Assembly (NCBI GenBank): GCA_040793985.1
Contig: JBFNJI010000046.1
Coordinates: 226-64,225, forward strand
Source: Candidatus Thiodiazotropha sp.
GTDB lineage: Bacteria > Pseudomonadota > Gammaproteobacteria > Chromatiales > Chromatiaceae
Length of the DNA stretch: 64,000 bases
Reading direction: 5' to 3'
The notes beneath the pieces were generated by a model, which was given only the letters and a program-made list of their open reading frames with translations, was not told the origin of the DNA and made no database searches. The position numbers and the translations under genes are program-made. How positions within the stretch are numbered: the first letter of the stretch is position 1; each line of letters opens with the position of its first letter. Of this stretch, positions 8,804 to 28,900 are shown in pieces.

Positions 8804-9370
8804 ATGTTTGAGAAAGATCCACGCACCTTCGCTCCCGAATACAAGAACCTGTCGCCGGAACAGAAGGCGATGGTGAAGCTTGAAATCACCCTGACCAACT
8901 TCTTCAAGACCTTCGACAAGAGCATGTCGCGCTGGGAGAAGATGATCTATCCCATGCTGGTGGTCGTTGGGGTGCTTGGTCTCTCCGGGTTCTATCTCAT
9001 CTACAACGTGACCACCGATATGCGTACCCTGACCGAGCAGGTGGATCCCCGCATGGAAGAGCACCTGCAGTCGATGTCGGATAACATGGGCCAGTTGGCA
9101 AAGAACATCAATACCATGACTGGACAGATCACGGTATTGGTCGAGAAGATCGACAGCATGGAGCAGCATATAGCCACCATGGACGGTAATATCGGCGTAC
9201 TGGCCGTCGATGTGGGCAGTATGAAAAATAATTTGAATCTGATGACGGTGAATATGGCCGACATGAACCAGGCCATGCGCACGATCACGGTAAATACCGG
9301 TTTCATGAGCCGCGACATCAATCAGATGGGGCGGCCTATGGACTTTATGAACTCCTTCACCCCCTGGTGA
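8804..9370 (+). CDS. Single-pass membrane protein with Met-rich heptad coiled coil (paralogue of 25107..25628)
   Basis: RWEKMIYP-TM-GFYLIY, regular a/d heptads, C-terminal RPMDFMNSFTPW. Confidence 0.85.
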   Translation: MFEKDPRTFAPEYKNLSPEQKAMVKLEITLTNFFKTFDKSMSRWEKMIYPMLVVVGVLGLSGFYLIYNVTTDMRTLTEQVDPRMEEHLQSMSDNMGQLAKNINTMTGQITVLVEKIDSMEQHIATMDGNIGVLAVDVGSMKNNLNLMTVNMADMNQAMRTITVNTGFMSRDINQMGRPMDFMNSFTPW

Positions 9371-11389: not shown

Positions 11390-12256
11390 ATGCACACCAC
11401 CAACCAGGCAAAGCACAGGGTCCAAAAGCTGCAATACCTGCCGCCGCTTTCGGCGACGGCCAGCCGTCTCCTGGCCATGGTGGGCGACGACAGATTTTCT
11501 CTGGAAGAGCTGGCGCTTGTCATCAAGCAGGATCCGGGACTGAGTGCCAGGCTGCTCGGGCTTGCCAACTCAGCCTACTTTGGCCAAAAGAATCCGATAC
11601 TTACCATCGAGGATGCGATTATCAGGGTTTTGGGCTTGAATATGGTGAAGAGCCTCGCATTCAGTATCGCCGTCAGTGGCGTTTTCGAATCCTCAGCCTG
11701 TAGCAGCTTCGATCTGCATGAGTATTGGTGCCATGCGTTATCGATCGCCACGTTATCCCGGCAAATCAGCCTTGCTGTCAAGAGTGAAGATCCCCCCGAT
11801 GCGGATGGTGTCTATCTTGCGGGTCTGCTGTTCGATATCGGCGTGCTCGTGTTGGTACACGAGTTTCCTGAGGAGTATGCCAGGGTTCTGACGATGTCGA
11901 GGCAGCAGCCGGACAGGGACCGGTTGCAACTGGAAATTGAGATCATAGGCACTGATCATCGTCAGGCTGCGGCGTGGCTTGGTCATCGCTGGCATCTGCC
12001 AGACAGGATTATCCATATCATCTCCCAGTCAGAGAAAGATGTTGCCGCATCGAAGAGTGCGTGTGAAGCAAATCTGGTTGGTAGTGTGGCGGAGTGGATT
12101 AAGCGGCCCCTGCAAGACGAATCGGAATCGAACCAAAACCCGCCTGAGTTGGAAAACAGTTGCGGGCTGTCGAGTGAACGGCTTCAGGCTATCAGGGGCG
12201 GTTTCCTGGAAAAGGAAGAGGAGATTCATGTGATTGCTAGTATGCTGGCCAAATAG
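11390..12256 (+). CDS. HDOD domain protein
   Basis: LPPLS, IKQDPGLSARLLGLANSAYFG, AIIRVLG, AGLLFDIG and LGHRWHLP motifs. Confidence 0.92.
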   Translation: MHTTNQAKHRVQKLQYLPPLSATASRLLAMVGDDRFSLEELALVIKQDPGLSARLLGLANSAYFGQKNPILTIEDAIIRVLGLNMVKSLAFSIAVSGVFESSACSSFDLHEYWCHALSIATLSRQISLAVKSEDPPDADGVYLAGLLFDIGVLVLVHEFPEEYARVLTMSRQQPDRDRLQLEIEIIGTDHRQAAAWLGHRWHLPDRIIHIISQSEKDVAASKSACEANLVGSVAEWIKRPLQDESESNQNPPELENSCGLSSERLQAIRGGFLEKEEEIHVIASMLAK

Positions 12257-12296
12257 ACTGGGGTGTAAAGTGGATCTCTCCTTTAATCAGACTTCC

Positions 12297-13448
12297 ATGG
12301 ATTTACGAGAGCGCTTCTTCAGCCTGCTCGATTCCCTCTCTGCCTTGCGCGCTCTCTCTCAGATCAATCTTGAAGGTATCAGTGAAGAGGAGCTGATCGC
12401 CAAGGCATTGGACGAACTGGTACGTTATCAGAATGTGGAGAACTGCTCGGTTTTTAGCATCGATGGGGGAGTGCTGGACTGCGTCATCGGGATCAGCCTC
12501 GATGAAGCCCACGCAGAGTTTATCGGTAGTGAACGGATAAGACAGGTCAGGGAAACCATGAGTTTCAAGCCGGGGGAGGGCATCGCGGGTATCGCCTATT
12601 CCACTGGCCAGTTGCAGTATTGCCGCAACTGTTCGCAGAGTGATGATTTTTTACTCAATACCCTTTCAGGCGGGGAGCTCCCGGGATCGCTGATCAGCGC
12701 TCCGATCAAGATGGGTGACAAGGTGCTCGGAGTATTGAATGCTTCCCACCCCCTTCCCGAGTATTTCGAACCTTGGCAACAGCATACCTTGAGTCTCTTC
12801 TGCAGCTGTCTCGGCCAGATCATGTATAACCACAGGCTGCTCAACAATCTGGAGACGGAGGTTGCACAGCGTACTCGGGAATTGAAAGAGGCGCTTAACG
12901 AGGCGGAAGCGCACCGCAAGCGCTACCAGCAGCTGCTGACTGTCGACGAGCTGACCGGACTGCATAATCGGCGCTACTTTTTCTCCGAGGCAGAGGCCTT
13001 GCTATCGAGGGCAATTCGCCATGAGCAGAGCTGTAGCTTGCTCCTGGTCGATATGGACTATTTCAAACGCATCAACGATCAATGGGGCCAACAGGTAGGT
13101 GACCAGGTACTTATCGCCATAGCCAAGGTGCTAAAAGAGGAGGCACGTGGGGGTGACGTTCTCGCCCGCGTGGGCGGTGAAGAGTTTGCGGTGATGCTCG
13201 CTGAAACGGGGATCGGTGGCGCCGATCTGATGGCGCAACGCATCCAGGAACGCCTGGCCAAGATCGACACGGGGCGTGACCTGGTTGGATTGAGCCTTAC
13301 TGCCTGCATCGGGATGACGGCCCTCTCCACTGACTACGACCGCGAGTTATCCGTCAGCGAGTTGCTCGATCAGCTCTACTCCAAGGCTGATCGTGCCATG
13401 TACGAGTGCAAACGCGAAGGCCACAATAGCCGCAAGCGCTTTCTCTAA
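12297..13448 (+). CDS. GAF-GGDEF diguanylate cyclase
   Basis: GEGIAG/SLISAPI GAF motifs; DELTGLHNRR, DMDYFKRIND, intact GGEEF and RGGD I-site; start uncertain (GTG 12270 or ATG 12297). Confidence 0.92.
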   Translation: MDLRERFFSLLDSLSALRALSQINLEGISEEELIAKALDELVRYQNVENCSVFSIDGGVLDCVIGISLDEAHAEFIGSERIRQVRETMSFKPGEGIAGIAYSTGQLQYCRNCSQSDDFLLNTLSGGELPGSLISAPIKMGDKVLGVLNASHPLPEYFEPWQQHTLSLFCSCLGQIMYNHRLLNNLETEVAQRTRELKEALNEAEAHRKRYQQLLTVDELTGLHNRRYFFSEAEALLSRAIRHEQSCSLLLVDMDYFKRINDQWGQQVGDQVLIAIAKVLKEEARGGDVLARVGGEEFAVMLAETGIGGADLMAQRIQERLAKIDTGRDLVGLSLTACIGMTALSTDYDRELSVSELLDQLYSKADRAMYECKREGHNSRKRFL

Positions 13449-13505: not shown

Positions 13506-15014
13506 TCAAACTCGCTCCTCAGCCATCTCTGGCGCAGATTCGCTGCTGCTCGCTGTCTGCTCTGCGGCAAGCAGTTTTTCACTGCCCGACGGATTGGTGA
13601 ACTGGTCATTGAGGGTTTGAATATAGGTGTCCGTTGCCTGCAAGACCGCTCTCAGCTGCTTCCTTGATCTGCCTCCCCACCCGGCCGGGTTCTTGCTGAA
13701 GATGGACCGCCAAGGCTTGGTGCTGCGCAGGAAGGCGCTGATGGGATTGCCCTTGATACCCGTGCCGGCAAGCTGCTTGCGCAAGCCTTTCAGCAGGCTG
13801 CGGGCGGCGACCTTTCTTACCGTAAAGTGGATGGCTGTCAAGAGAATCAGCACCAGGGCGATAATCACCCAGGGCAACGGGGAGTTGAAGCCGTTCTCCA
13901 ACCAGGGTGGGGCAAAGGTGAAGCCCTGCCAATAACCGGCGTTAAACGAGAAGATCAGCAGCCCGAGGAGCAGGCCGCCCATGAGCAGGGCATCGCCCAA
14001 CAAGACCCGTTTCTTCCAACGCTCGAGGGTGGCGGTGACCAGGGGTATGCTGCGCTCCTCGATATCCCGGGCAGTCTTCTCCAGGGCGCCGACGATGCGG
14101 TAGGCGCGCTCGATTTCGACCTCTTCCATGCGGCTGTGGATCTCCTTGAGGTCGATGTCGCGTTTCGTTTCATAGCGATTGCGCAGGGCCTCGTCCTCGA
14201 TCGGGACCGCTGCATCGGGATTGTAGACCGCATAGAAGCGACCGGCGGTGAGGCCGCGTTCACCCAACGCGCGCTGCCAGGCCGCGATGACATCCTCCGG
14301 GTTGTTCTCTCTCGCGGTGGTGTCGATCTGATTCAGGATATAGAGGAATTTGCCGGTGTCGTTGCGGTGAATGGTGCGTTCGATCAGATGACTCAGGGTA
14401 TCCTGCATCGCACCGGGCTCCGGATGACGGGCATCGAAAAAGACCAGTACCAGGTCGGACAGATCGATGATGTGATCGGTAATGCGCAGGGTTGAGGTGC
14501 GCTGGGCATCGGCATCGAATCCCGGGGAGTCGATGAGGATCTTACCCCGCAGTTTTTCACTGGGAGATGTCTTGAGCTGCAGATAGGCGTCGATGCGGTC
14601 GCCTTCACCCTTCGCCACCTTTTCGATCTCATCCGACATCTGGTAGAAGGGAAAGCGGGGATCGGAGTCGAGCGCCACCCCCGGGAGGGCATGAGCGGTC
14701 GCCTCTTTGCTGTAGCAGATGACAGTGAACCTGTCGTCCACAGCCTGATTGCCGGAGCGCTGCAGGGGGGTGCCGATATAGTGGTTGATGAAAGTCGATT
14801 TGCCGGCGGAGAAGGTGCCGAGGACAGAGATCAGGGGCCACCAGGGTATCTGCATGGCAAAGGAGTTGTCCCCATCCAGCAGCCCGAGTCGAAAGGCGAC
14901 TTCATCGAGCTGGCGAAAGCTCTGCACGGTGCTGAGGAGGATTGGGTTTTCCTGTTCCAGGTGGGTTTCTAGGTGTTGCAGGCGTGCCTCTATGACCTGT
15001 CCGGCTGGATGCAT
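13506..15014 (-). CDS. Dynamin-superfamily (EHD-like) NTPase with two C-terminal transmembrane helices
   Basis: G1 GTFSAGKSTFIN, DDRFTVI, G3 IDSPG, LVFFDA, G4-like LNQID; two hydrophobic helices near the C-terminus; GAGGAG RBS. Confidence 0.82.
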   Translation of the reverse strand: MHPAGQVIEARLQHLETHLEQENPILLSTVQSFRQLDEVAFRLGLLDGDNSFAMQIPWWPLISVLGTFSAGKSTFINHYIGTPLQRSGNQAVDDRFTVICYSKEATAHALPGVALDSDPRFPFYQMSDEIEKVAKGEGDRIDAYLQLKTSPSEKLRGKILIDSPGFDADAQRTSTLRITDHIIDLSDLVLVFFDARHPEPGAMQDTLSHLIERTIHRNDTGKFLYILNQIDTTARENNPEDVIAAWQRALGERGLTAGRFYAVYNPDAAVPIEDEALRNRYETKRDIDLKEIHSRMEEVEIERAYRIVGALEKTARDIEERSIPLVTATLERWKKRVLLGDALLMGGLLLGLLIFSFNAGYWQGFTFAPPWLENGFNSPLPWVIIALVLILLTAIHFTVRKVAARSLLKGLRKQLAGTGIKGNPISAFLRSTKPWRSIFSKNPAGWGGRSRKQLRAVLQATDTYIQTLNDQFTNPSGSEKLLAAEQTASSSESAPEMAEERV

Positions 15015-15453
15015 GGTTCTCTCACTCCTCGGTTTTTCCGGCTCGCGGGTTGCTTATTCTGGTTTATGATTCTGCAATGAATCGTCGCTTTCAGACCTTC
15101 AACATTATCTTAATGCCTGCCTGGTTGGTGTACATAGTTTTTTTTAACATGTTGACAGTTTTCGTGGAGATCGGGTGTCGATTTTTGGGCGCCAGCCGAG
15201 AGGGAGGGAATTTACCCTATTCATTACCTGTGAATTTCGCCAAAGCTGAGCCTTTTAAACTCGCTTATGTTACTGAAAGTAAAAATAATATTATAATTTG
15301 CTGATATTCTTAAATAAATGATTTATAATGGTTTCTGATGAAATTTGTCGGTTGCAATGGCACTCGCCTTCGTAGATACTGGCAAATTCTTAAGTAGGGT
15401 TTGATTACGCCTACAGATGAAAAAAACGTAAAGAATTAGTGGAGGGGACCGAG

Positions 15454-15849
15454 ATGGCAGAACTGTTTTCCGAGGCATGGATGAGTGAATTTGCGACCCA
15501 CTGGAATGCGGAGCCGGAATTGGCCGATGCCTTGGCGCAAATCGGCTTCAATAGCGTAATCGGCTATGGGTTCGATGGCGACGCTTCGCCGAGAGGGGTG
15601 CTTGTGGTGGAGAATGGCAAGGCGGCGAGCGGCGAGGCCTACAACGGTCAGACCTTGAACTGGGATATCCGTGCTACTGAAGATCAATGGAATAAGTGGA
15701 TAGCGAAGCCGCCTGGCATGATGGGGCTTGGCATGGCCTTCACCTCCCGCAAGATGAAGTTCGAGATCGGTGACTATTCATCAATGATCAAGGATCCGCG
15801 CATGGCGGGTCCTTTCATCAAGAGTTTTGCCGTCATGGGACGTGTCTGA
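15454..15849 (+). CDS. SCP2-like (sterol carrier protein-2 fold) small protein
   Basis: LFSEAWM..F...WN start, WDIRA...W..W and AFTSRKMKFEIGD pattern typical of SCP2-like domains; GGAGG RBS before the ATG at 15454. Confidence 0.65.
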   Translation: MAELFSEAWMSEFATHWNAEPELADALAQIGFNSVIGYGFDGDASPRGVLVVENGKAASGEAYNGQTLNWDIRATEDQWNKWIAKPPGMMGLGMAFTSRKMKFEIGDYSSMIKDPRMAGPFIKSFAVMGRV

Positions 15850-15908
15850 GAGACAAGTCGAAGCAGGATTTCTCTAACGTGTGAATCAACACTAGGTAGT
15901 AGTGAGAT

Positions 15909-17063
15909 ATGGGTTTTAAATTGAAGGTGAAGATTGTAGTTGCCGCTTGTGTCCTCTCTGTGGCAGGCAGCGGTCTGCAGGCACAGCCTGGTATGACCGG
16001 CGGCGACCACTATGTGGTGCAGCAGACCCAAGGTGTAACACACGTCTCTCTTGGCGGTACCGTGGTGCCCTACAAGGAAGTGACCCTCTCAGCGCAACTA
16101 CCTGGCCGTGTCAATTTCCTGGCCGGTATCGAAGGCGATACATTCAAGGAGGGGGATCGCCTTGTCGAGTTGGATGACAGCGAGTTGATGGCCAAGCGGG
16201 AGGCGGCGATGGCACAACTGGCGAATGCCGACGCCCAGTTGCGCAATGCCGGTGTACAGTACAGCCGTGAATTGTGGTCGCCAAAGTCGAAATCCTCCAT
16301 GGGCGGCATGGGCATGCCTAATCTCTTTGACCAGATGTTCACGCGACCGATGGAGGATGTCTTCGGAGAGCGGGATCAGGGGGCTGAACGGCGCGCGGAC
16401 ATCTTCTCCTCGCAAACCAATATTCAACAGGCGAGGAATACCATCTATCGGGTTCAGGCCGAGATTCGGGCCATCGATGCCAAGTTGCGCGATGCCAAAA
16501 GTCTTGCTCCCTTTGATGGCGTAATCATGAAGAAATTCGTCGAAGTCGGTGATACGGTGCAGCCGGGACAGCCGCTGTTGAAATATGCCGACGTGGAGTA
16601 TCTGCAGATCGTGGTGGATGTTCCCGGACGCCTGCGTCCCGGTCTCAACGAAGGTATGATACTGCGGGCAGAACTCGATGTGGGAGATCAGGAAGTACCG
16701 GTTCGAGTTGCCCAGATATTCCCCATGGCAGATGCCCAAAGGCACACCGTGACAATCAAGTTCGATCTGCCTCAAGGGGTATCCGCTCCGGGCATGTATG
16801 CCAAGGTCCTGGTGCCTGACTACAATGCGCCGACCCGCTCCAATCCGGTGATTCCAAACAGTGCCATTCGCTACAACGGAAGCCTGCCAGGGGTCTATGT
16901 CATTGGCGAGGATGGCGAACCGATGCTCAGACTGATTCGCGTCGGTGAGAAGCTTCCGGGTGACTACGTCAGTGTGCTGTCAGGCCTGCAGGCGGGTGAA
17001 CGGGTACTGCGCAATCCGCCACTTGGCATCAGCGCCGGCTGGACCTCCTCGCAAGGCCGTTAG
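15909..17063 (+). CDS. RND efflux periplasmic adaptor (membrane fusion protein)
   Basis: Lipoyl half-motifs LSAQLPGRV..GDTFKEGDRLVELD and APFDGVI..VEVGDTVQPGQPLL; signal peptide. Confidence 0.92.
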   Translation: MGFKLKVKIVVAACVLSVAGSGLQAQPGMTGGDHYVVQQTQGVTHVSLGGTVVPYKEVTLSAQLPGRVNFLAGIEGDTFKEGDRLVELDDSELMAKREAAMAQLANADAQLRNAGVQYSRELWSPKSKSSMGGMGMPNLFDQMFTRPMEDVFGERDQGAERRADIFSSQTNIQQARNTIYRVQAEIRAIDAKLRDAKSLAPFDGVIMKKFVEVGDTVQPGQPLLKYADVEYLQIVVDVPGRLRPGLNEGMILRAELDVGDQEVPVRVAQIFPMADAQRHTVTIKFDLPQGVSAPGMYAKVLVPDYNAPTRSNPVIPNSAIRYNGSLPGVYVIGEDGEPMLRLIRVGEKLPGDYVSVLSGLQAGERVLRNPPLGISAGWTSSQGR

Positions 17064-17194
17064 TTGCGAAAGCGGAGGCATACAGGGAACCCCAAGATTT
17101 TTTCACGGAAGAAAAAAGCACTCTCTACAATTAAGTAAAAATGGGTCAGGGTCTGTGACAGGGTCTGCCTGAGATCAATGCATCGAGATTAACT

Positions 17195-20100
17195 ATGAGC
17201 CAGAACGACGAGAAACTCGATCAGCTCCACTCCACCGATCCCCACTATGAGGCGCATCTTGGTATCGCGGGGAGGACCGCTCGGTTCTTTATCCAGTCGC
17301 CGCTCTCGCCGCTCTTCTTCCTGGCCATGATGTTGATGGGGCTGTTGGGTCTGATCATAACGCCGCGTCAAGAGGACCCTCAGATCTCGGTACCGATGGT
17401 CGATATCTTCGTTCAATATCCGGGTGCCGCGGCGGATCAGGTGGCTGCATTGGCGATCGAGCCCCTGGAGCGCATCATGTCGGAGATTCCCGATGTGAAA
17501 CATGTCTACTCCGCCGCCCAACGCGGGGGCGGGGCGGTTACCATCGAGTTCGAGGTGGGGGAGGAGATGGGACCTTCCCTGGTCAAGGTTAACGACAAGA
17601 TCGATTCCAATATGGATCTGATCCCCCCCGGGGTGATGCCGCCGCTGGTGAAGGCCAAAGGTATCGATGATGTGCCGGTGGTGACCCTGACCCTCTGGTC
17701 GAAAGACCTGGATCGGGACGGAGCGCCCGATGTGGATGATGGCCAACTGCGAATGCTCGGCCACGATGTGCTGCAGGCCCTTAAGGAACTGCCCGACACA
17801 GGGAATGGTTTCGTGGTCGGTGGCAGAAGGGAGCAGGTTACCATCGAGGTATTCCCGGAACGGCTGGCGGGTTACGGGATAAGCCTTGATCATGTGGCAG
17901 ACACCATCCGCAAATCCAATGCTGAACAGCAGGCCGGTGGTGTGGAGGCGGGAAGCACCTACTCAAACGTGGTGACCGGTGCCTTCCTTAAGACCACTGA
18001 GGATATCAATCGCCTGGTGGTGGGTTCTCACAACGGGGTCGATGTCTATGTACACGACATCGCGCGGGTGAAACAGGGACCGGAGGATGCCAAGCAGCTG
18101 GTGGGTTACTACACGGGTGCCGCCAGCGATCTTGAGATAAAGGCGGACGGCGTGCCGGCGATCACCCTGGCAATAGCCAAGAAAGAGGGCTCCAACGGGG
18201 TTACCGTGGCCAATGCCATCAAGGATCGGGTTGAGCATATCAAGGGATCGCTGATCCCGGATAACGTGGAGGTCAGCGTCACCCGCAACTACGGCAAGAC
18301 AGCGGATGACAAGGTCAGCGAACTGATCTTCAAACTGTTTGTCGCCACCGGGTTCGTGTTTCTCCTGGTATTGGCGGCATTCCGCGCCTTCAGACCGGCG
18401 ATCGTGGTGGTGCTGGTGATCCCAGTGGTATTGCTGATGACCATCTTCAGCGCCTGGGTCATGGGTTACACCATCGACCGGGTCAGTCTTTTCGCGCTGA
18501 TCTTCTCCATCGGAATCCTGGTGGATGATGCCATCGTGGTGGTGGAGAATATCTATCGTCGCTGGTTGGAGGAGAAGTCCACCGATGTGGTCACTGCGGT
18601 TGACGCGGTGAGAGAGGTGGGTAATCCCACCATCCTGGCTACCTTTACCGTCATCGCTGCACTGCTGCCAATGGGATTCGTCAGTGGCATGATGGGTCCC
18701 TACATGGAACCGATCCCGGCACTGGGTTCGGTGGCGATGCTGATCTCCCTTTTCGCCGCATTTGTCTTTACCCCCTACCTCACGGTTTCTCACTGGTTGC
18801 GCCCCAGTATGCGCTATCTGGAGGTGGCCGGGGAGCGGGAGCACAAGGAGGCGGAGTGGCTGGAGCGCCTGTTCAAGCGCATCCTGATTCCGATGATCGA
18901 GTCACCCCGCAAGGCAAGACTTTTCAAACTGGTCATGTGGGGCACCTTCCTCGTCACCTGCTCCTTCTTCTACTTCAAATGGGTGGCGGTGAAGATGCTG
19001 CCCCTGGATAACAAGCCGGAATATTCGGTGGTGGTGGATATGCCGGAGGGGACGGCACTGCCGGTGACCGCCAACCTGGCGCATCGCATGGCGGAGAAGA
19101 TCCGCGTATTACCGGAGGTCACCGCGGTACAGGTCTATGCCGGAACCGCCCGGCCATTCGATTTCAACGGCATGGTCCGCCACTACTACCTGCGTTCCGA
19201 TCCCTGGCAGGCGGAAGTGCAGGTGCAGCTGCTGGATAAGACCGACCGTGATCGCACCAGTCACGAAATAGCGGTACAGACCCGGGAAATGTTGAGTGAT
19301 CTCATCAAGGGCACCGGCGCCAGAATATCGGTGGTTGAGATGCCTCCGGGGCCTCCGGTACTGCAATCTGTGGTTGCCGAAGTGCACGGGCCGAGTCCGG
19401 AGGTCAGGCGTCGGGTGGCGCAGGATCTGACCGACATATTCGAGCAGACTGAGAGCCTGCGCGACGTCGATAACTACATGCGCGATCCTTATCAATACTG
19501 GCGCTTCAACGTGGATACGGAAAAAGCGGTGCGGCGGGGAATCTCTGTCGATACCATCAATCGCAACCTTGGCATGGCCCTGGGCGGGGCCCTGGGCGAT
19601 GTCAAGCAGCGCGCCGGTCATGAACCGATCAATATAGTGATGCAGGTGCCGCTGGCCGAGCGATCGGAAATCACCCGCCTTGGCGACCTGCCGATCCAGT
19701 CGAGCAGCGGCATCACCGTACCTCTGCGCGAGCTCGGCCGATTCGAACAGGTATTCGAAGATCCGATCATCTATCACAAGGATCTGCGTGATGTGGAGTA
19801 CGTGGTAGCCGAGGTGGGCGGCAAACTTGCGGCGCCGGTCTACGGCATGCTGCAGGTGCAGGATATTCTGGCTGAGAGCGATTACAAGGCGCCGGATGGG
19901 GTCGCAATCTCTCCGAACTGGCTGGGTCCCCCGAAAAACGACTCCAATACCGGTATTGAATGGGCCGGCGAATGGACTGTGACCTTTGAGACCTTCCGCG
20001 ATATGGGGGCTGCATTTGCGGTGGCCCTGGTACTGATCTATATCCTGGTGGTCTGGGAGTTTGGCAACTTCCGCATTCCGGCACTGATCATGGCGCCCAT

Positions 20101-21325
20101 TCCACTGACACTGCTGGGCATAATTCCGGCCCATTTCCTCTTTTTCCAGGCCGGCTGGGGCGGCGAGTTCACTGCAACTTCGATGATCGGCTGGATCGCC
20201 CTGGCGGGCATCATCGTACGTAACTCGATTCTGCTGGTCGATTTCTCCATACATCAGGTACAGCAGGGCACCTCCGTGGTTGACTCCGTCATCATGGCCT
20301 GTAAGACCCGTACCCGCCCCATCATGATCACCGCTTTTGCCCTGGTGTGCGGTTCCTCAGTGATCTTTTTCGATCCGATTTTTCAGGGCATGGCCATATC
20401 CCTGGCATCCGGTGTACTCGTTTCCACCGTGCTTACCCTGATCGTGATACCCCTTGGATGTATAGCCGCGAGCAAGGATATCATCGAGGTGGCGGAAGCG
20501 ACCGCACCGGCCGGTAGCAGCTTGGCGGAGGATGGCAGGGGGCTCCCGGCAGCGGGGGAGGGGGCGATGGCCGCCGCATCAGGTGCCGCATCTGCATCCG
20601 AGGCTGCACCTAAGCGCACATCCTTACCCATGCTGGTCTGGGGTAGGGTGATTGCCGTTATCACCACACTCTTCTATCTGGTCAGAGGGGTTTTCCTGCT
20701 CTTATGGCAGATGTTAAGCGGGCTCTTTAGAAGAAAATCCCGGCAGCCTAATGTTACAAAGGCTGAGCTGACAGATAGCGGTTCAGGCGGCGGCACAGGC
20801 AGCGGTGGCGGAATGTCGGGGCCACAGAGTGGATCTCCACCGGCCTCAGATGAGGATGATGTCTCGGTAGCTGCGGCACCGAAAAGCCAGGAGGCTCCCC
20901 CTGTGGCAGCTGCAAAAGAGAGACCTGAAGCGTCTCCAAAGAAGGCGAATTCAACTCCCCCTTCAATGCCCGTGTCGGATCGGGCAACTGACAACCCGGG
21001 CGACCAGACCGATACACAAAAGCAAACCGCCAAATCCAAGCCGAAAAAGGCGGCAGTCGAGGCAAAACAGGCCAAAGCCGCAGAGAAGAGCAAGCCTGAA
21101 ACCGCAACTGCTCCCAAGAAACCGGCCGCAGCGAAACAGAAGAAACGTCCTTCAACGCTAAAGAAAAAGGTCGCGAAAAAGAAGGCTGCATCTGCCAAGC
21201 GCAAAGGTAATGGAGCACCTGAATCCACGCCTGCGAAGCCAGATCCGGCCCAAAAGCAGGCCTCCAATGTGACAGAATTTCCGATCCGCAGAAAGGTTGC
21301 GAGGAGGGGGATTAGACTCAAATAG
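17195..21325 (+). CDS. RND permease (AcrB/HAE1-like) with about 285-aa C-terminal extension
   Basis: PRQEDPQI, IGILVDDAIVVVENI, GIIVRNSILLVDF and RTRPIMITA motifs; Ala/Lys/Pro-rich tail. Confidence 0.95.
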   Translation: MSQNDEKLDQLHSTDPHYEAHLGIAGRTARFFIQSPLSPLFFLAMMLMGLLGLIITPRQEDPQISVPMVDIFVQYPGAAADQVAALAIEPLERIMSEIPDVKHVYSAAQRGGGAVTIEFEVGEEMGPSLVKVNDKIDSNMDLIPPGVMPPLVKAKGIDDVPVVTLTLWSKDLDRDGAPDVDDGQLRMLGHDVLQALKELPDTGNGFVVGGRREQVTIEVFPERLAGYGISLDHVADTIRKSNAEQQAGGVEAGSTYSNVVTGAFLKTTEDINRLVVGSHNGVDVYVHDIARVKQGPEDAKQLVGYYTGAASDLEIKADGVPAITLAIAKKEGSNGVTVANAIKDRVEHIKGSLIPDNVEVSVTRNYGKTADDKVSELIFKLFVATGFVFLLVLAAFRAFRPAIVVVLVIPVVLLMTIFSAWVMGYTIDRVSLFALIFSIGILVDDAIVVVENIYRRWLEEKSTDVVTAVDAVREVGNPTILATFTVIAALLPMGFVSGMMGPYMEPIPALGSVAMLISLFAAFVFTPYLTVSHWLRPSMRYLEVAGEREHKEAEWLERLFKRILIPMIESPRKARLFKLVMWGTFLVTCSFFYFKWVAVKMLPLDNKPEYSVVVDMPEGTALPVTANLAHRMAEKIRVLPEVTAVQVYAGTARPFDFNGMVRHYYLRSDPWQAEVQVQLLDKTDRDRTSHEIAVQTREMLSDLIKGTGARISVVEMPPGPPVLQSVVAEVHGPSPEVRRRVAQDLTDIFEQTESLRDVDNYMRDPYQYWRFNVDTEKAVRRGISVDTINRNLGMALGGALGDVKQRAGHEPINIVMQVPLAERSEITRLGDLPIQSSSGITVPLRELGRFEQVFEDPIIYHKDLRDVEYVVAEVGGKLAAPVYGMLQVQDILAESDYKAPDGVAISPNWLGPPKNDSNTGIEWAGEWTVTFETFRDMGAAFAVALVLIYILVVWEFGNFRIPALIMAPIPLTLLGIIPAHFLFFQAGWGGEFTATSMIGWIALAGIIVRNSILLVDFSIHQVQQGTSVVDSVIMACKTRTRPIMITAFALVCGSSVIFFDPIFQGMAISLASGVLVSTVLTLIVIPLGCIAASKDIIEVAEATAPAGSSLAEDGRGLPAAGEGAMAAASGAASASEAAPKRTSLPMLVWGRVIAVITTLFYLVRGVFLLLWQMLSGLFRRKSRQPNVTKAELTDSGSGGGTGSGGGMSGPQSGSPPASDEDDVSVAAAPKSQEAPPVAAAKERPEASPKKANSTPPSMPVSDRATDNPGDQTDTQKQTAKSKPKKAAVEAKQAKAAEKSKPETATAPKKPAAAKQKKRPSTLKKKVAKKKAASAKRKGNGAPESTPAKPDPAQKQASNVTEFPIRRKVARRGIRLK

Positions 21326-21429
21326 CATAAGCAGGGACTAAATCCCTGTGTTTTGCTGTCGAATACCTTAGCCTAGGCCCGGCATGGTTCCGATGGTCTA
21401 TACTCGTCTTGGTAATCTGGAGTGGTAGT

Positions 21430-22038
21430 TTGCGTATCGATGCAGCGCTATGGTTGGTCTTGATCGCCTGTCTGGTGGGGCTGGGTGAGCTCCTGGCAGG
21501 CCAGCCCTATGCCGATTTTCAGTTCCTCGAGCAATCCCAACAGAGGCCTGTTTATGGGGAAGACCGCTATCGTTGGCGTCCTTTGAACGAGGAACAGCAA
21601 GGGGAGTCGTCCACCAATCTGGTTCCCAATGTGATCGATAACGGGCGCTCCAATCGCCCACCGCCAATCATCGATTATGCCGAATCGCCCCCCGGTCTGC
21701 CTCGCGGTGTCTATCGGCCGGTCGAAAAGCGACACAACATCACTCCGCACATGGACGGGTATCGCTTTCGCACCCTAAGCCCGAGTGAGCAGCAACGCAT
21801 CAAACGACGGAATGAAGAGTACAGCCGTGCCTGGCAGCCGAACAGAAAGGAAACCAGCCAACAGTTATCATCCGAGCCCTATTACGGTTTCAAAACCGAT
21901 AGCCAGCAGGGTTACAGATTTCGCCCGGACAAGCGTTTGGAGAAACGGCAAGGTCGGAACTGGGGAGAGCCGGGCTCTTTTCCCAACGATCCGGCATTTA
22001 CCGAAGCCTATCCGGCTCAAATGTTCCGTCCGGATTAG
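21430..22038 (+). CDS. Secreted low-complexity protein with aromatic-R-x-R-P repeats
   Basis: Signal-peptide-like N-terminus; YRWRPL, VYRPV, YRFRTL, YRFRPD and MFRPD; start uncertain (TTG 21409 or TTG 21430). Confidence 0.75.
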   Translation: MRIDAALWLVLIACLVGLGELLAGQPYADFQFLEQSQQRPVYGEDRYRWRPLNEEQQGESSTNLVPNVIDNGRSNRPPPIIDYAESPPGLPRGVYRPVEKRHNITPHMDGYRFRTLSPSEQQRIKRRNEEYSRAWQPNRKETSQQLSSEPYYGFKTDSQQGYRFRPDKRLEKRQGRNWGEPGSFPNDPAFTEAYPAQMFRPD

Positions 22039-22296
22039 GTGTTGGCAAAGAACAACAGCCGTAAACCAGCGACCGATTCCGTTCGACACTACTGAAAAAC
22101 ATACACTAATGGTTTTGTAGAGGCCTGTTTACAGCTAAACTGTCTCCTAAATTGATAAAGCGTGAGGGATTTGCCAGCATTACGATCTTGGGGCCCTCTG
22201 AGCGCCTGGCGATTGCATCAGCTCTAGCTGCTGCGGTCTCGGGGGCTGTATCTATAAATATCGTTGTTAAACGGATCAACTTAACAGGTAACCCTG

Positions 22297-23511
22297 ATGA
22301 GAAAAAAGAGATTTGTGCTATTGATCCCCGGTATCCTCTTCACAATGCTGATGCCGTCGGCTTCGGCACTGGAGGGCAGTGCGCCAAGTTACAATCAATG
22401 GCGCCCCCTAGCGGATCGGAGCATGGCAGCGGAGTGGGCAGGGCGCCATCAGGGTCCGGTGCAGTCTATGAGTACAGCGCCCTGGAAGGGGGTGCAGCGC
22501 AATCCCAATCTGGATGGGCAGGCTTACCGCTTCAGGTCCTGGGGGGATGGAAAGACTCAACGCGCCCGTGTATCTATGCATGCAACACCAGGGTCTAACT
22601 ACGCGGCGTATCAGAACCGGCAATCTGTGAAGATAGCCCAAGAGGCCAGGTTTCAGATGCCCAGCTACGGTTACCAACAGCCACAACCTGCTGTCTACCC
22701 CAAACACCTCAATTGGCGACCTGTGTCTGCGGCACCTGGCACTGCCCCTGCCGCATATGGTGTTGACAACCGCTATCGCTTCAGACCCATGCAACGTACA
22801 GACAAGAGAACTGCCCCAGCGAGATGGACCTATCGGCCACTGCAGATCGATATACCAAATACCTATGTCTACCGTCCGCTCCGGGTGAACAAGCCAGCGA
22901 ACAGGGTAGATAGACATATACCGGCTCCACCGACCATGCCGCAGGTGTCGGGATACGGCTCCGGTAACAAGGATCCATACGCCTACGGTTTTGGTTACCT
23001 CGGTGCGCCTGCCCAGAGCTTGCCGTCGTCCGACTATCAACCACGCCAGCAGCCAGTCAACTATCACAACTACCGGTCGGCGGGTTCAGTTGCCGGGCAC
23101 CCGGGTTTCAATACCCATGCTTGGGGCTATCGGTTCCCACGAGACCGCTACTCACCTCGATATGCGATAAATATGCCGTTTAACAGTTACAGGTTCCGTC
23201 CACTGCGTCGACCGGGAGGGGAAAGATACCGTCATCGAGGCCCGCAGCCACCGCGTTATGCCATTAATCCTCCAGTTTATCCATCGACATTTTCACCATT
23301 GCCACCAACTCACGTCTATGCCTATCGGAGTTGGATGCCTCCCCTGGGATACCCCCATCCCGGAATGGAACAGGCATTGCGGCAGCCTGTCGCAACCAAT
23401 CGATTTGGAACCAACTGGTATGATGGTGAGGCAGATGGTGAAGGGGCATGGTATAAGCTGGCAGGAGAGCTGGAGTGGCCAAGGGTTTCGCACTTTTCAC
23501 CCGTGGAGTGA
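22297..23511 (+). CDS. Secreted Tyr/Arg/Pro/Gly-rich protein with about 10 YRFRP-like repeats
   Basis: Signal peptide MRKKRFVLLIPGILFTMLMPSASA; QWRPL, YRFRSW, NWRPV, YRFRPM, TYRPL, VYRPL, YRFPR, YRFRPL, YRHRGP. Confidence 0.82.
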   Translation: MRKKRFVLLIPGILFTMLMPSASALEGSAPSYNQWRPLADRSMAAEWAGRHQGPVQSMSTAPWKGVQRNPNLDGQAYRFRSWGDGKTQRARVSMHATPGSNYAAYQNRQSVKIAQEARFQMPSYGYQQPQPAVYPKHLNWRPVSAAPGTAPAAYGVDNRYRFRPMQRTDKRTAPARWTYRPLQIDIPNTYVYRPLRVNKPANRVDRHIPAPPTMPQVSGYGSGNKDPYAYGFGYLGAPAQSLPSSDYQPRQQPVNYHNYRSAGSVAGHPGFNTHAWGYRFPRDRYSPRYAINMPFNSYRFRPLRRPGGERYRHRGPQPPRYAINPPVYPSTFSPLPPTHVYAYRSWMPPLGYPHPGMEQALRQPVATNRFGTNWYDGEADGEGAWYKLAGELEWPRVSHFSPVE

Positions 23512-23604
23512 GGGGATGCAGAGAAGCTAACGAATATACAGGTGCTCACATATTCCCGGATGAAAGAGCGCCAGCTTCACCAAAAACATAATAAAGGGGA
23601 GTGT

Positions 23605-24240
23605 ATGATCACAGTAATCGGTAGTCTCAAAGGAGGATCGGGAAAAAGCACGGTGACCTTTAATCTTGCTGTCTGGTTGGAGATGGCGGAGGCGGAAGTA
23701 CTGGTCATAGATGCCGATCCTCAGGCGACGTTAAGCGATGTCTCAGAAGTGCGTGCAGAGGAAGGGTATGAGCCCTTGCTCAATATCAAAGACGCATCAG
23801 CGCTGTCGAGAAAGAAGCTCAGGGGTTATGATGAGGTTTTGATAGATGTTGGGACATCCGATATCGATGCGATGAAGTTGGCATTGGCACTGGCTGACCG
23901 GGTTGTGATACCGGTTCCGCCGTCTCAGGCCGATATCTGGTCGACTCAGCGTTTCATCAGCTTTCTCGATGATGCCGTGGATGGCGAACGTCCGGAGCTG
24001 CTGACTTTCATCAACCGGGCCGATACCCACCATGCGATCAGGGAGTCCGATGAGGCTGCTGCTGCACTGGTATCCTTGCCCGATGTCGATTTTATAAAGT
24101 ACCGTCTTTGCCAAAGGACGGTTTTTCGCAGGTCTTTCAGCGAGGGTCTGGCCGTCTATGAACTGGATCCGAGAGGAAAAGGCAGCAAAGAATTTTATGC
24201 ACTTACAGCTGCGCTGTATCCCAACTACATCAGTCAATGA
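23605..24240 (+). CDS. Short orphan ParA/MinD-family ATPase
   Basis: Deviant Walker A KGGSGKST, IDADPQA, LIDVG and VIPVPPS; no HTH and no adjacent parB; AGGGGAG RBS. Confidence 0.9.
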   Translation: MITVIGSLKGGSGKSTVTFNLAVWLEMAEAEVLVIDADPQATLSDVSEVRAEEGYEPLLNIKDASALSRKKLRGYDEVLIDVGTSDIDAMKLALALADRVVIPVPPSQADIWSTQRFISFLDDAVDGERPELLTFINRADTHHAIRESDEAAAALVSLPDVDFIKYRLCQRTVFRRSFSEGLAVYELDPRGKGSKEFYALTAALYPNYISQ

Positions 24241-24303
24241 GCGGGGGTTAGCTGCTGGGTTGTTTATGGGATATTCAATATCGAGTTTTCCTTGGAGAGA
24301 GAG

Positions 24304-24882
24304 ATGGGGATGATAAAAAATCTGTTAGCCTTGATTGGGTTGTTGGTTGTCTTAGCTGCGGCGGCTGTCTATGTAAAGTATGGCGATGTCTTGAAAGGCT
24401 GGGATCCTGGTGCGGGTGATACCTTCATGGAGTTTTCGCAGTTGCTGGCATCGACAAAGAATGCCGCCGAAGCGAGTGTCTGGAAAATACCCGTTGCGGA
24501 GGATCTCTCATGGGAGGATGTGGAAGAGACCATGAAATTTGTCGCCAACGAGCACAACATGGCCAATGTGGGCGAGCTGCCGTTGTACAAGGACATCGAG
24601 TCGAAATTGGGTACGGAGTATAGGTTTGTAAAGATCTATCTCTTCTGCGACTCACTGATCGCGGCCAAGATGCTCGACTACTCCGACGCCTATTCCGCCT
24701 ATCTGCCCTGTAGAATCACCCTGCTCGAGGATCATCAGGGCAAGCTCTGGTTAATGGCGCTGAATATGGACATGATGATATACGGCGGCAAGCCGCTTCC
24801 ACCCGAGCTCAAGGAACAGGCCCTGAAAGTTAAGGAATATATCCTCGATATAATGAATCGGGGTGCTAGCGGTGAGTTCTGA
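24304..24882 (+). CDS. DUF302 domain protein with N-terminal membrane anchor
   Basis: IYLFCD...YSAYLPCRITL motif of DUF302; hydrophobic N-terminus. Confidence 0.82.
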   Translation: MGMIKNLLALIGLLVVLAAAAVYVKYGDVLKGWDPGAGDTFMEFSQLLASTKNAAEASVWKIPVAEDLSWEDVEETMKFVANEHNMANVGELPLYKDIESKLGTEYRFVKIYLFCDSLIAAKMLDYSDAYSAYLPCRITLLEDHQGKLWLMALNMDMMIYGGKPLPPELKEQALKVKEYILDIMNRGASGEF

Positions 24883-24950
24883 GAACCTGTCCTGAGCCGG
24901 TATCGGGATGGCTCGGAGATGATTTGTTAACTTGTTGTAATTGTTATAAT

Positions 24951-24977
24951 AAAACCGGGCAATAGCCCGGTTTTTTT
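24951..24977 (+). terminator. Rho-independent terminator after the DUF302 gene
   Basis: AAAACCGGGC-AATA-GCCCGGTTTTTTT. Confidence 0.85.
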
Positions 24978-25106
24978 CGTGCCGGAGACAGGTCGCCGCC
25001 TGTGGTTTGTCTATAAGTATATTAGTAGATTTTGATTGTGATAAGCGGCTGCTATGCTACTATTTCATATGACCAAAATTAGAGAATTAGTATTAGGTCT
25101 TGCAAC

Positions 25107-25628
25107 ATGGTAGAAAAAAACGACCAGGATACTCAGAACGAACCGGCAGATGCGGGAGTTTCTGAGACCGATATCAGAAGTAGCCAGGACTCAATGGATC
25201 GCCTCTCAATGGCGTTCGAGACGAGTGCACGGCGTTGGGAGCTTATCGTCTATCCATCACTTTTTGCCTTCATCCTGTTGGCAGCCTATGGTTTCTATCT
25301 AATCTTCAGTCTGGCCAAGGATATCCATTTTCTCGCCTTGAGCGTCGATTCCAACATGAACGTGATGTCCAGCAACCTGATGACCATGACCGATAGTGTC
25401 AGCCAACTCTCCGCCAATGTGCGTACCATGGCCGTGAGTGTGGATTCGATGGCCCAGGATGTGAGAACCCTGCAACCCATGCTCACCAGTATGGATTCCA
25501 TGGAGGAGTCGATGAAGACCATGACTCACGCCACCTATAACATGCAGCGGGACATGCATTCGATGAATTACAATATCCATGATGTCTCGCGCCCTATGAC
25601 CTTCTGGAACTCATTTATGCCCTGGTGA
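25107..25628 (+). CDS. Single-pass membrane protein with Met-rich heptad coiled coil (paralogue of 8804..9370)
   Basis: SARRWELIVYP-TM-GFYLIF, Met-rich heptads, C-terminal RPMTFWNSFMPW. Confidence 0.85.
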   Translation: MVEKNDQDTQNEPADAGVSETDIRSSQDSMDRLSMAFETSARRWELIVYPSLFAFILLAAYGFYLIFSLAKDIHFLALSVDSNMNVMSSNLMTMTDSVSQLSANVRTMAVSVDSMAQDVRTLQPMLTSMDSMEESMKTMTHATYNMQRDMHSMNYNIHDVSRPMTFWNSFMPW

Positions 25629-25971: not shown

Positions 25972-28900
25972 GTGGTGGGTCTGGTGACTGAAATATCTCC
26001 TCAAATTGTCCAAATCTTTCTGTTGCTCATTGCTGTTCTCTCCCTCGGCATCGCCGCTTACAGTTGGTTTAAAGCAAAAGGCCTGAGATTTAGCGAGGAT
26101 CAGAGTCAGAAGTATCGAAATCTGTTTGATCAGGCTGGCGATGGCATAATCGTTCACGATGCCGACGGTAAAATCCTCGATGTAAATCATGCGATTTGCG
26201 ACCTGTTCGGCTATAGCATGGATGAGTTTTGCCAACTTACAGTTCCCCAGCTACACCCTTCGGATATTGCTGTTGTCGAAAAAAGCCGTGAAGCCTTCGC
26301 ATTGGTTGCACGTGACGGTCAAGTCAGATTTGAAAACGATTTCATTACCAGGGACGGAGAGATTTTGATCGGGGATGTAACCGCAAAGGTCATCCACGAT
26401 AGCGGCGGTAAATACATCCATGCCGTGTTTCGCAATGTTACAGTTCAGAAGCAGATGGAGGCTGCGCTGAAAAAACAGAATCAGCAATATCTTTCCCTGC
26501 TCGAGAATGTCAACGTCATTAGTTGGGAACTCGACCTCTCCAACACAAATTTTATCTACGTATCACCCAACGCGGAGCGCATTCTCGGATATCCGATGAA
26601 GGATTGGGTGAACATGGATTCATGGGTCTCCATGGTGCTGGTTGAGGATCGGGAATTTGCCAGAAAATATTGCACGGCTGAGGCGCTTGCCGGCCGGGAT
26701 CATACGTTTGAATATCGTATGCAGAAACAAAATGGCGAGATTATCTGGATATTGGAGGTAGTCCGGGTGATAAAGGATCAGACGGATAATCCTGTTAGGT
26801 TGGCTGGATTTATGTTTGATAACACCGATCAACATGAACTGACGGCAAAACTGGACGAGAGCCGCAGGGCTTATCGGAATGCACAAGAGATCGCGCAATT
26901 GGGATATTGGCAAATGGATATCAAGACCGGGAAAATCACCTGGTCAGATGATATTTTCCGGATGCTGGGAATGGCTCCCGAAACGGAGCTGGGGGTGGAA
27001 TTTCTTGCCAATATCGTACATCCCGATGATTGGCCAAAAGTTGAGTCATCACTAAAAACAGCCATCCGTGAAGGTACTGTGCACGAGATGGAGTACCGTG
27101 TCAGCTGTCCAGGCAGACACAATGAAATATTGTGGGTCTATTCCAAGGCGGAGCGATTGCGGGATTCCAGCGGTCAAGCAAAAAGCCTGTCTGGGATTGT
27201 GCAGGATATTACCGAACGCAAGCAGAACGAGTTGGCTCTGCGGGAAAGCGAATCATTCTTGAACGACATCTTCGACGCCATTCAGAATGGTATCAGCATC
27301 CTGGATACGGATTTCAATATTGTCAAAACAAACCGCTGGCTTGACGAGTATTATACGGACAAAAAACCCCTTATAGGTAAAAAGTGTTATCACGTCTATC
27401 AAGACAGCGATGCAGTCTGTGATTTTTGCCCGACCAAGGATGTATTGGAAACCGGTTTGCCAAAAACTGACACCTTAAAGGTACCCCTCGCGGGTGGTGG
27501 AACAGGCTGGGTCGAATTATCCGTATTTCCCGTTAAAAATGAAGCAGGTCGCATCGTTAATGTAATCGAATACATCAAGGATATTACAAAGAGAAAGACT
27601 GCGGAGAGCAGACTGGCACGTTTTCGAAATCTCCTTGAACAATCGAGTGATGTAATACTCATTATCAATGCCGATACTTCCCGCATTGTGGATGCCAATA
27701 TGGCGGCATGTAAAAGTCTGGGTTATGACCTGGATAAGCTGTTAACACTGCATGTCTGGGAGATCGATAGCAATATGGCAGATCAGGAGGCCTGGCATGC
27801 ATGGGTTGATTCCCTCGCAAAGCAGACGGATGTGGTAAGTGAAAGCCGCTATTTGAGAAATAACGGTGATCGATTTCCAGTTGAGGTTAATACCCGGCAT
27901 GTCGAAACCGAAGATGAAGATCTGATTATAGCCATTGCGCGAGATCTGAGTGACATTGTTAGAATTCATGATCAGCTTGTTGAGAGTGAGAGCAAACTGC
28001 GAACCATACTCGATAATGTCGATGCCTTTATTTACCTCAAGGATCTGGATGGCAAATATCTTTTTGCCAACAAGGCGGTACGTGATCTATGGCATGCCGA
28101 TATGGACGATATCCTTGGTTATGGCGATGAAAAGTTTTTTGATGAAGCCAGTTCACAGGCAATAAGGATCAATGACAGCAAGGTGTTGAATGAGGGCATG
28201 ATCCTGCGCGCCCATGAAACCAATACTGTTCCGCAGACTGGGAAAACCGCAGTATATCAATCGACGAAGCTGCCCCTGAGGCACGAGGATGGAGAGATCT
28301 ATGCACTGTGCGGGATCTCTATGGATGTCACCGAACAGAAAAAAGCGGAAACGGACCTAAAGGAGAGTGAACGGCGTTTCAAGATCGCAGGTCAGGCAGC
28401 ATATGACCTGATCTATGAATGGGATGTGGCCAGTGACGAGTTGAAATGGTACAGCGACATTGACCGGATACTTGGTTATGCAGAGGGTCAAATCTCCCAA
28501 AATATTCGCGCATGGCTGGATCTTATCCATCCAGATGATCTGCAATTCATGCAGGACAGTGTTGAATTACATCGCACCTCATCGAGCGATATCCAGTACG
28601 AATACAGAGTAAGACATGCGGATGGATCCTACCGGTATTGGAGTGACCATGCCTTGCCCATGCTGGATAAGGATAATAAACCGTATCGATGGGTGGGTGT
28701 TTGTGCTGATATAACGCTGCTAAAAGAGCATCAGTTGCAGCTTGAGCATAATGCCAACCACGATCTGTTAACCGGATTGCCGAATCGTGTATTGCTTAGT
28801 GATCGCCTGAAGCAGGCGATGCTCCAGGAAAAACGTTTCAAGCAGAAACTTGCTGTTGTCTATATCGATTTGGACGGATTCAAGCAGATCAATGACCGCT

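Follow-up and report, generated by a model that had tools for sequence, protein, structure and literature searches.

A conserved RND-ParA gene cluster in Candidatus Thiodiazotropha and related Gammaproteobacteria, with a candidate link to periplasmic sulfur globules

A 64,000-nucleotide stretch of contig JBFNJI010000046.1 (GenBank assembly GCA_040793985.1, positions 226 to 64,225 of the forward strand) from Candidatus Thiodiazotropha sp., a sulfur-oxidizing symbiont of lucinid clams (this stretch is hereafter called the window), contains at 13506-25628 a cluster of nine genes in which a resistance-nodulation-division (RND) permease and its periplasmic adaptor (membrane fusion protein, MFP) stand beside an orphan ParA-type ATPase, secreted low-complexity proteins, a Met-rich membrane protein, and a dynamin-like NTPase. 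The permease ends in a long variable tail with an invariant terminal peptide, and wherever enough sequence was available this tail was accompanied by ParA. The locus is interpreted here, with confidence that is evenly divided, as a conserved envelope-spanning module of sulfur-storing Gammaproteobacteria whose function is tied to periplasmic sulfur globules.

Gene content of the locus and the tail of the RND permease

The open reading frames (ORFs) of the 64-kb window were checked against the initial annotation, which had been made from the letters of the window and a list of its ORFs. All nine ORFs were present, with coordinates matching to within a few codons, in the order minus-strand dynamin-like gene, spacer of ~439 bp, and eight plus-strand genes; the divergent arrangement was thus confirmed, and the family assignments held. 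The features are as follows.

13506-15014, minus strand: dynamin/EHD-like NTPase (502 aa; Dynamin_N)
15015-15453, no strand: divergent AT-rich spacer, ~439 bp
15454-15849, plus strand: cytoplasmic protein with a predicted SCP2 fold, heading the operon in this lineage (131 aa; AlphaFold2 and Foldseek)
15909-17063, plus strand: RND periplasmic adaptor, MFP (TIGR01730)
17195-21325, plus strand: RND permease, whole gene (1376 aa; ACR_tran at residues 29-1087, then ~290 residues more)
17195-20491, plus strand: body of the RND permease with 12 transmembrane (TM) helices, HAE1-like, VDDAIVVVEN (ACR_tran)
20492-21325, plus strand: C-terminal extension of the RND permease, with a linker, a 34-residue hydrophobic segment, and a disordered Lys/Ala/Pro-rich tail (hydropathy and composition)
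21302-21322, plus strand: RRGIRLK, terminal peptide of the RND permease and candidate ParA-contact motif (invariance across orthologues)
21409-22038, plus strand: secreted basic low-complexity protein with YRWRP, YRFRT, and YRFRP, the "slot" protein after the RND gene (signal peptide and motifs)
22297-23511, plus strand: second, larger secreted Pro/Arg/Tyr-rich protein with three YRFR[PS] motifs (signal peptide and motifs)
23605-24240, plus strand: orphan short ParA/MinD-type ATPase, KGGSGKS, no helix-turn-helix (Pfam and NCBIfam profiles)
24292-24882, plus strand: membrane-anchored periplasmic DUF302 protein, accessory and lineage-restricted (PF03625)
25107-25628, plus strand: single-pass Met-rich coiled-coil-like protein (hydropathy and composition)
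8804-9370, plus strand: unlinked paralogue of the Met-rich protein, only a possible member of the module (same ORF cluster)

The RND permease matched ACR_tran (PF00873) over residues 29-1087 with an E-value of 4e-140, and the VDDAIVVVEN motif of its TM4 corresponds to an Asp-Asp (DD) proton relay, not the metal-type motif. Its best NCBIfam match was NF033617 (RND_permease_2), at 420 bits versus a cut-off of 1250, and TIGR00915 gave 278 versus 940; HAE1 models scored 420 bits versus 235 for CusA/CzcA, the HpnN model reached only E 8e-4, and the closest structures in the PDB were TriC (6vej), MdtB, and MexK. By these profile scores, the pump appears HAE1-like yet atypical, far under the curated multidrug cut-offs. 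It resembles the HAE1-type tripartite pumps AcrAB-TolC, TriABC-OpmH, MdtABC, and MexJK in its 12-TM ACR_tran body, its DD motif, and an adjoining MFP with lipoyl, barrel, and hairpin domains; however, it differs from them in those low scores, in its ~290-residue tail with an extra hydrophobic segment and RRGIRLK, in a 33-residue insertion in the MFP, and in the lack of an outer-membrane factor gene in the examined clusters.

Beyond TM12, the tail consists of an Ala/Gly linker, the 34-residue hydrophobic segment (nt 20624-20725) with basic residues on either side, and a Lys/Ala/Pro-rich stretch (isoelectric point [pI] 10.4) that ends in ...ARRGIRLK. This architecture was compared in 79 complete RND orthologues with at least 50% identity from the fetched loci, ten of which duplicate Thiodiazotropha genomes, leaving ~70 independent genomes. 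A tail of 191-343 residues was present in 77 of the 79 and was otherwise hypervariable, ranging from basic to acidic across lineages, and yet every one of the 77 carried RRGI[RK]L no more than 15 residues from its C-terminus. A ParA orthologue lay 36-4734 bp downstream of the tailed RND gene in all 72 cases with enough downstream DNA, and both tail-less orthologues, from a genome of another family (G033), had neither RRGI[RK]L nor ParA. An invariant end on a hypervariable, disordered tail, co-inherited with ParA, is the pattern expected of a motif that contacts ParA or stimulates its ATPase, and the tail would be placed in the cytoplasm. The initial annotation had listed these genes and had missed the terminal peptide, which co-occurs with ParA and is the strongest clue internal to the locus.

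The ParA protein has at its N-terminus a deviant Walker A motif with the signature lysine (GSLKGGSGKST) and matched Pfam AAA_31, CbiA, and MipZ; its score against NCBIfam NF041546 was 129 bits, under the cut-off of 180 for partition ParA proteins, and no parB-like ORF was found in the cluster. In these respects it is like the orphan ParA/MinD systems McdA-McdB of carboxysomes, PpfA-TlpT of chemoreceptor arrays, and BcsQ of cellulose synthase, in which a short deviant-Walker-A ParA is encoded beside its presumed cargo without ParB or a centromere. The candidate adaptor is likewise a disordered region with a short basic end peptide. Unlike in those systems, the presumed adaptor here is the tail of an RND permease and what is finally positioned would be extracytoplasmic, the interaction itself being a candidate drawn from sequence. 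In a genome of a second other family (G036, locus L021), another ParA-like gene, apparently split by a frameshift, directly follows the RND gene at 12314-13212, and the intact ParA orthologue lies further downstream.

The MFP matched TIGR01730 at 157 bits (E 4e-46, cut-off 94.9) and, weakly, the CzcB family, and it adjoined the RND gene in all 79 loci. Canonical MFP adaptors have a tight turn at the tip of the hairpin, the part that normally meets TolC. The AlphaFold2 model of the window MFP (predicted local distance difference test [pLDDT] 81) has a hairpin of normal length (helices 91-123 and 157-196), and its tip, residues 124-156, is occupied by a conserved 33-residue Met-rich insertion (GMGMPNLFDQMF) of low model confidence; AlphaFold2 fails to place this insertion, SSMGGMGMPNLFDQMFTRPMED. 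Within the MFP, a GMGxPNLFDQMF stretch is kept across lineages. Enrichment in methionine extends throughout the module, in the MFP tip insertion, a loop of the SCP2-fold protein, and the coiled-coil protein. No outer-membrane efflux protein (OEP) or TolC gene was found within the window or in any examined cluster, as the initial annotation had stated; however, other parts of this genome contain at least eight OEP genes, so a TolC partner could still be supplied, and the absence of one from the window carries no weight.

The Met-rich protein contains 11% Met and is single-pass and coiled-coil-like, with RWELIVYP before the TM helix and ...FMPW at the C-terminus, and its orthologue lay 3′ of ParA in 42 of the 44 loci where enough DNA was available. 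The paralogue at 8804-9370 has the same RWELIVYP and a ...PW end, adjoins nadA, and is syntenic across Sedimenticolaceae-type loci.

Conservation of the cluster across lineages

In total, 80 loci from named genomes were gathered by alignment with the SCP2-fold protein, and their ORFs were clustered, a sample biased toward SCP2-headed operons; the ParA protein was used as a second probe across 301 genomes in 73 genera of the host order in GTDB. Within the genus, all parts were found in unchanged order. The recurrent order was SCP2, MFP, long RND, and secreted protein(s), often a DUF4412/LolA-like gene, then ParA, and often DUF302 and the Met-rich gene. The SCP2-headed order recurred in Sedimenticola, including the cultured S. 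selenatireducens DSM 17993, in tubeworm symbionts, and in metagenome-assembled genomes (MAGs) labeled Chromatiaceae, Ectothiorhodospiraceae, Thiotrichales, and Competibacteraceae. Synteny was seen in ~70 loci (Thiodiazotropha, Sedimenticola, tubeworm symbionts, Chromatiaceae-type, and Ectothiorhodospiraceae-labeled), and variants of the cluster were found in further gammaproteobacterial lineages. ParA orthologues (61-98% identity) were present in 256 of the 301 genomes and 61 of the 73 genera.

Ten ParA-centered loci from other genera had the order dynamin (9/10), MFP, tailed RND, slot, DUF4412 (7/10), ParA, and Met-rich (9/10), with SCP2 or DUF302 in the cluster in none of the ten. The core therefore consists of dynamin, MFP, tailed RND, slot protein(s), ParA, and the Met-rich protein. 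Gene-neighborhood and phylogenetic profiling, which had been proposed as checks on the initial annotation, thus agree that the gene set is a conserved module and no chance neighborhood.

The product of 13506-15014 matched Dynamin_N (PF00350) in Pfam at 53.6 bits versus a cut-off of 27 (E 3.7e-14, residues 62-213), and its only solved relatives by sequence in the PDB were eukaryotic EHD4 (E 4e-6) and EHD2. After the helical region, hydropathy indicates two hydrophobic helices, at residues 336-361 and 374-404, which are predicted to form a two-helix membrane hairpin or anchor; a remodeling activity is putative. Like bacterial dynamin-like proteins and EHD ATPases, it has a Dynamin_N G domain, a helical region, and a membrane-binding element; unlike the tandem BDLP pair, it is encoded by a single gene, with two predicted TM helices and NQID as its G4 motif. 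Where enough sequence was available, in 70 loci, a dynamin orthologue was located no more than 6.5 kb upstream of the RND gene in 51, divergently in 50 and co-directionally, across a 76-bp gap, in one (G036). In the ten Chromatiaceae-type ParA-centered loci, whose other flanks differ, it was divergent in nine. The dynamin gene was absent from the distant loci that have a sulfur-globule protein gene in the operon and unlinked in G033. Given these arrangements, the explanation that the gene is there through local synteny only was dropped. Its link to the cluster is thus frequent and not obligatory.

The initial annotation had also placed the SCP2 and DUF302 proteins in the module, and both families were upheld. 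The 131-aa protein had no Pfam match, the Pfam SCP2 model included; however, its AlphaFold2 model (pLDDT 94) was matched by Foldseek to 2cx7 (TM-score 0.77, E 4e-7) and to UbiJ-SCP2 (6h6o), and on this basis it is predicted to have the SCP2 fold, with a Met-rich loop, PPGMMGLGMAF. The DUF302 protein matched PF03625 at 42.5 bits versus a cut-off of 23 (residues 102-158). Membership in the core did not stand, neither gene being in the cluster in the ten Chromatiaceae-type loci. DUF302 was found in Sedimenticolaceae-type loci and G036. The SCP2-fold homologue was present in 269 of the 301 genomes; however, in Chromatiaceae-type genomes it was isolated, at 50-58% identity and with neighbors that were not conserved (loci L105-L111), and the gene was therefore rejected as a marker of the operon. 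SCP2 and DUF302 are thus lineage-specific additions. In L107, the SCP2 gene (14965-15369) adjoins a minus-strand gene (14173-14859) whose product is secreted, Gly/Tyr/Pro-rich, and folded toward its C-terminus.

The initial annotation had described the divergent AT-rich spacer as 424-440 bp, in agreement with the ~439 bp found here, and the GC fraction at 15001-16000 was 0.48, against ~0.57-0.59 in the flanks. Promoter and terminator scans gave counts at chance level relative to shuffled sequence: the spacer held a single sigma-70-like site (15301-15329, 10/12) at a frequency no higher than chance, a scan for a sigma-54 promoter upstream of the operon found none, and sites like the terminator that had been proposed ahead of the Met-rich gene were no commoner than in shuffled sequence. 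A GGAGG lies 8 nt upstream of the ATG at 15454. The possibility that the cluster is an anti-phage defense system was rejected, as PADLOC yielded just weak P-loop noise.

Genes for cyclic di-GMP turnover flank the cluster at 12234-13448, 25972-30423, and 30508-32589 (one GAF-GGDEF and two PAS-GGDEF-EAL), and a GGDEF-EAL gene lies directly 3′ of the Met-rich gene in four other loci (L084, L089, L099, and L100). In Allochromatium vinosum, an EAL gene, Alvin_1756, is three genes from the cluster. Such flanking genes may mean regulatory coupling to the cluster.

Distribution relative to sulfur-globule proteins

The sulfur globule is a textbook trait of purple sulfur bacteria, Beggiatoa-type bacteria, and chemosynthetic symbionts. 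The initial annotation had linked the locus to it, a link that found support both in the distribution of the module, which tracks the genes for sulfur-globule coat proteins (SGP, PF17228), and in SGP genes inside the orthologous operon of a related lineage. SGP was present in 68 of the 73 genera of the host order, and ParA orthologues occurred in 61 of these 68; in the five SGP-less genera, read from the tables as g21, g35, g57, g69, and g71, the ParA orthologue was missing from all five (genus-level Fisher p ~5e-5, uncorrected for phylogeny). SGP was likewise found in 37 of the 38 genomes that have the SCP2 gene or the operon. At the level of the class, 16 genomes were sampled, one from each of 16 other families, among which SGP matches were confined to G036, above the cut-off, and G033, where the match was weak (E 3.9e-4); orthologues of both dynamin and RND were found in these same two genomes only.

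Gene neighborhood, a third independent line beside the co-occurrence in the order and in the class, pointed in the same direction. In five of six tested Ectothiorhodospiraceae-labeled loci (L056, L059, L078, L082, and L102), a PF17228 gene scoring 46-70 bits (cut-off 26.7) lay inside the operon, between RND and DUF4412/ParA. Taken together, the phyletic pattern and the gene neighborhood tie the module to sulfur-globule biology, as judged from genome sequences.

In the window, the corresponding slot is filled by the two secreted proteins, which the initial annotation had described as secreted repeat proteins within a possible sulfur-globule machinery. That they are secreted and of low complexity was borne out; they are not members of the SGP family, as PF17228 matches neither the 21409-22038 nor the 22297-23511 protein. 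Each has a signal peptide, a basic composition (pI 9.5 and 10.2), and three aromatic-Arg-aromatic-Arg motifs, and no other ORF of 80 aa or longer in the genome has more than one such motif. In 53 of 72 loci, the position after the RND gene was taken by an ORF with this motif; the A. vinosum-type locus (L115) is among them, and its slot ORF is likely Alvin_1762; the sequence of the larger window protein is recognizable almost only inside the genus. Counted across loci, the SCP2-headed operons have one to four secreted low-complexity proteins each, and several Sedimenticola loci keep pump, ParA, and Met-rich protein with no slot protein. The window proteins resemble SgpA-D of A. vinosum in being secreted, of low complexity, and rich in Tyr and Pro or Gly, and SGP genes occupy the same slot in the five related operons; they differ in being Arg/Pro/Tyr-rich, strongly basic, much larger, and without a PF17228 match.

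Possible roles of the module

In a mechanism that would account for these parts, the RND-MFP complex would be seated in and span the inner membrane, where it would nucleate, feed, or anchor the globule. The extra hydrophobic segment of the permease would be a re-entrant hairpin, because basic residues lie on both of its sides, and the disordered tail would thereby be kept in the cytoplasm. Basic peptides of ParB, McdB, and MinE stimulate ParA/MinD-type ATPases; similarly, the terminal RRGIRLK would be a handle gripped by a dimer of the orphan ParA, probably stimulating its ATPase, and ParA would set the pump complexes at intervals across the nucleoid or the membrane and partition them. On the periplasmic side, the Met-rich loop of the MFP, the Met-rich coiled coil, DUF302, the DUF4412 LolA-like protein of other lineages, and the secreted low-complexity proteins (of YRFRP type here and SGP type elsewhere) would touch the hydrophobic sulfur deposit or seed its formation. 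Hydrophobic cargo would reach the pump by way of the SCP2-fold protein, and shaping or cutting of the membrane that surrounds the globule would fall to the membrane-anchored dynamin/EHD-like NTPase. The specific version of this scheme, in which cytoplasmic ParA positions and partitions the periplasmic globule by holding the RRGIRLK-tipped tail of the RND-MFP complex and dynamin shapes the surrounding membrane, is put forward tentatively, as a possibility we rate on the doubtful side. As in the initial annotation, we infer a part in "building, filling and positioning" globules; the exact role of the module is presumptive, and it may anchor, nucleate, feed, or partition globules or may export some envelope lipid.

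Several observations weigh against a function in sulfur globules or against parts of this mechanism. The four SGP genes of this genome, on contigs C14, C1, and C16, are all unlinked to the cluster, and the co-occurrence of SGP and ParA at the genus level could reflect a few losses in non-storing clades. A Competibacteraceae MAG (L065) has the operon and no Pfam SGP match in its genome. The A. vinosum-type locus has no adjoining dynamin gene, and in G033 the dynamin orthologue (56% identity; L022, 7755-9401) is set within a housekeeping block, ispG-hisS-[dynamin]-yfgM-bamB-der. The topology of the RND tail derives from hydropathy alone. RND pumps take up their substrates from the periplasm or the outer leaflet, and a cytoplasmic SCP2 donor is therefore mechanistically awkward. 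The A. vinosum copy of the cluster appears, from the gene table of PMC11267869 and the matching gene order, to be Alvin_1759-1764, and these genes change only 0.65- to 1.48-fold in that table; sulfur was oxidized in both conditions, however, so the fold changes are uninformative and no test of the sulfur link. Among sequencing runs, the stretch was located in none of RNA and only in the mollusc metagenome that probably gave rise to its assembly.

The operon of L065 encodes an MFP, a tailed RND (RRGIRLK), ParA, a TPR protein, and a Met-rich protein, with a Gly/Tyr-rich frame between RND and ParA. This frame may be an unrecognized coat protein or may serve a different cargo.

The strongest alternative, which is nonetheless improbable in our estimate, is that the cluster encodes a ParA-positioned exporter of a general hydrophobic envelope component (a lipid, quinone, hopanoid-like compound, or amphiphile), with SCP2 acting on the cytoplasmic side and the LolA-like and DUF302 proteins on the periplasmic side, and with the link to sulfur due only to shared ancestry. 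The SCP2 fold, the DUF4412/LolA-like gene of relatives, and the HAE1-like DD motif would all suit such an exporter, as would the operon in the SGP-negative Competibacteraceae genome and the lack of strong regulation in the A. vinosum table. Hopanoid HpnN and the Methylococcus sterol Bst systems similarly encode an RND transporter with soluble carriers of hydrophobic ligands; however, they belong to other RND subfamilies and have no ParA, dynamin, or coat-like proteins. Shared ancestry also sits poorly with SGP genes embedded in the operon in five loci and with the coincidence of SGP and cluster in exactly two of 16 families, and no conserved lipid-biosynthesis genes were found beside the cluster.

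It is unlikely that the system instead secretes, anchors, or organizes low-complexity surface or matrix proteins for adhesion or biofilm formation under the control of cyclic di-GMP. The one to four secreted disordered proteins lie after the pump, and the cluster has GGDEF/EAL genes on its flanks both here and in several relatives, as would be expected of such a system; however, the slot proteins have their own Sec signal peptides, and RND pumps are, to our knowledge, not known as protein exporters. Moreover, those slot proteins that can be identified are sulfur-globule coat proteins, and the Sedimenticola loci without a slot protein have kept the rest of the pump, ParA, and Met-rich set.

Very improbable, finally, is an ordinary tripartite drug or metal efflux pump with TolC encoded elsewhere and unrelated neighbors, for which the OEP genes elsewhere in the genome, the weak CzcB-family match of the MFP, and Met-rich segments in the MFP loop, SCP2 protein, and coiled-coil protein (a hint of Cu(I)/Ag(I) handling) could be cited, since ParA, the tail peptide, the Met-rich protein, and usually dynamin accompany the pump order-wide and beyond, HAE1 models outscore CusA/CzcA and the TM4 motif is DD, and the MFP tip that normally meets TolC is interrupted by the insertion.

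The tie to periplasmic sulfur globules is accordingly retained as the preferred reading, and the cluster offers a concrete candidate for the machinery behind their construction and placement. In agreement with the initial annotation, the papers searched contain no description of this gene set as a system, and no text mention of Alvin_1759-1764 was found in them. For sulfur globules, the coat proteins SgpA-D are known and no assembly or positioning machinery has been described, the Sgp proteins being treated in a 2023 study of SgpD as the sole known globule components (PMC10386293); a Thiomargarita preprint only speculates upon dynamins, in general terms.

Because A. vinosum is genetically tractable and has the orthologous Alvin_1759-1764, the nucleation, feeding, membrane holding, spacing, and inheritance of globules become directly testable. 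Apart from sulfur, an RND permease with an invariant tail peptide that is always accompanied by an orphan ParA would represent a new kind of ParA cargo and a new use of the RND scaffold. If the scheme in which ParA positions globules through the RND tail is true, the cluster would provide the first genetic toolkit by which bacteria build a storage compartment outside the cytoplasm and pass it on. In lucinid, tubeworm, and other symbioses, the gene set is likely to have a bearing on how the symbionts store sulfur.

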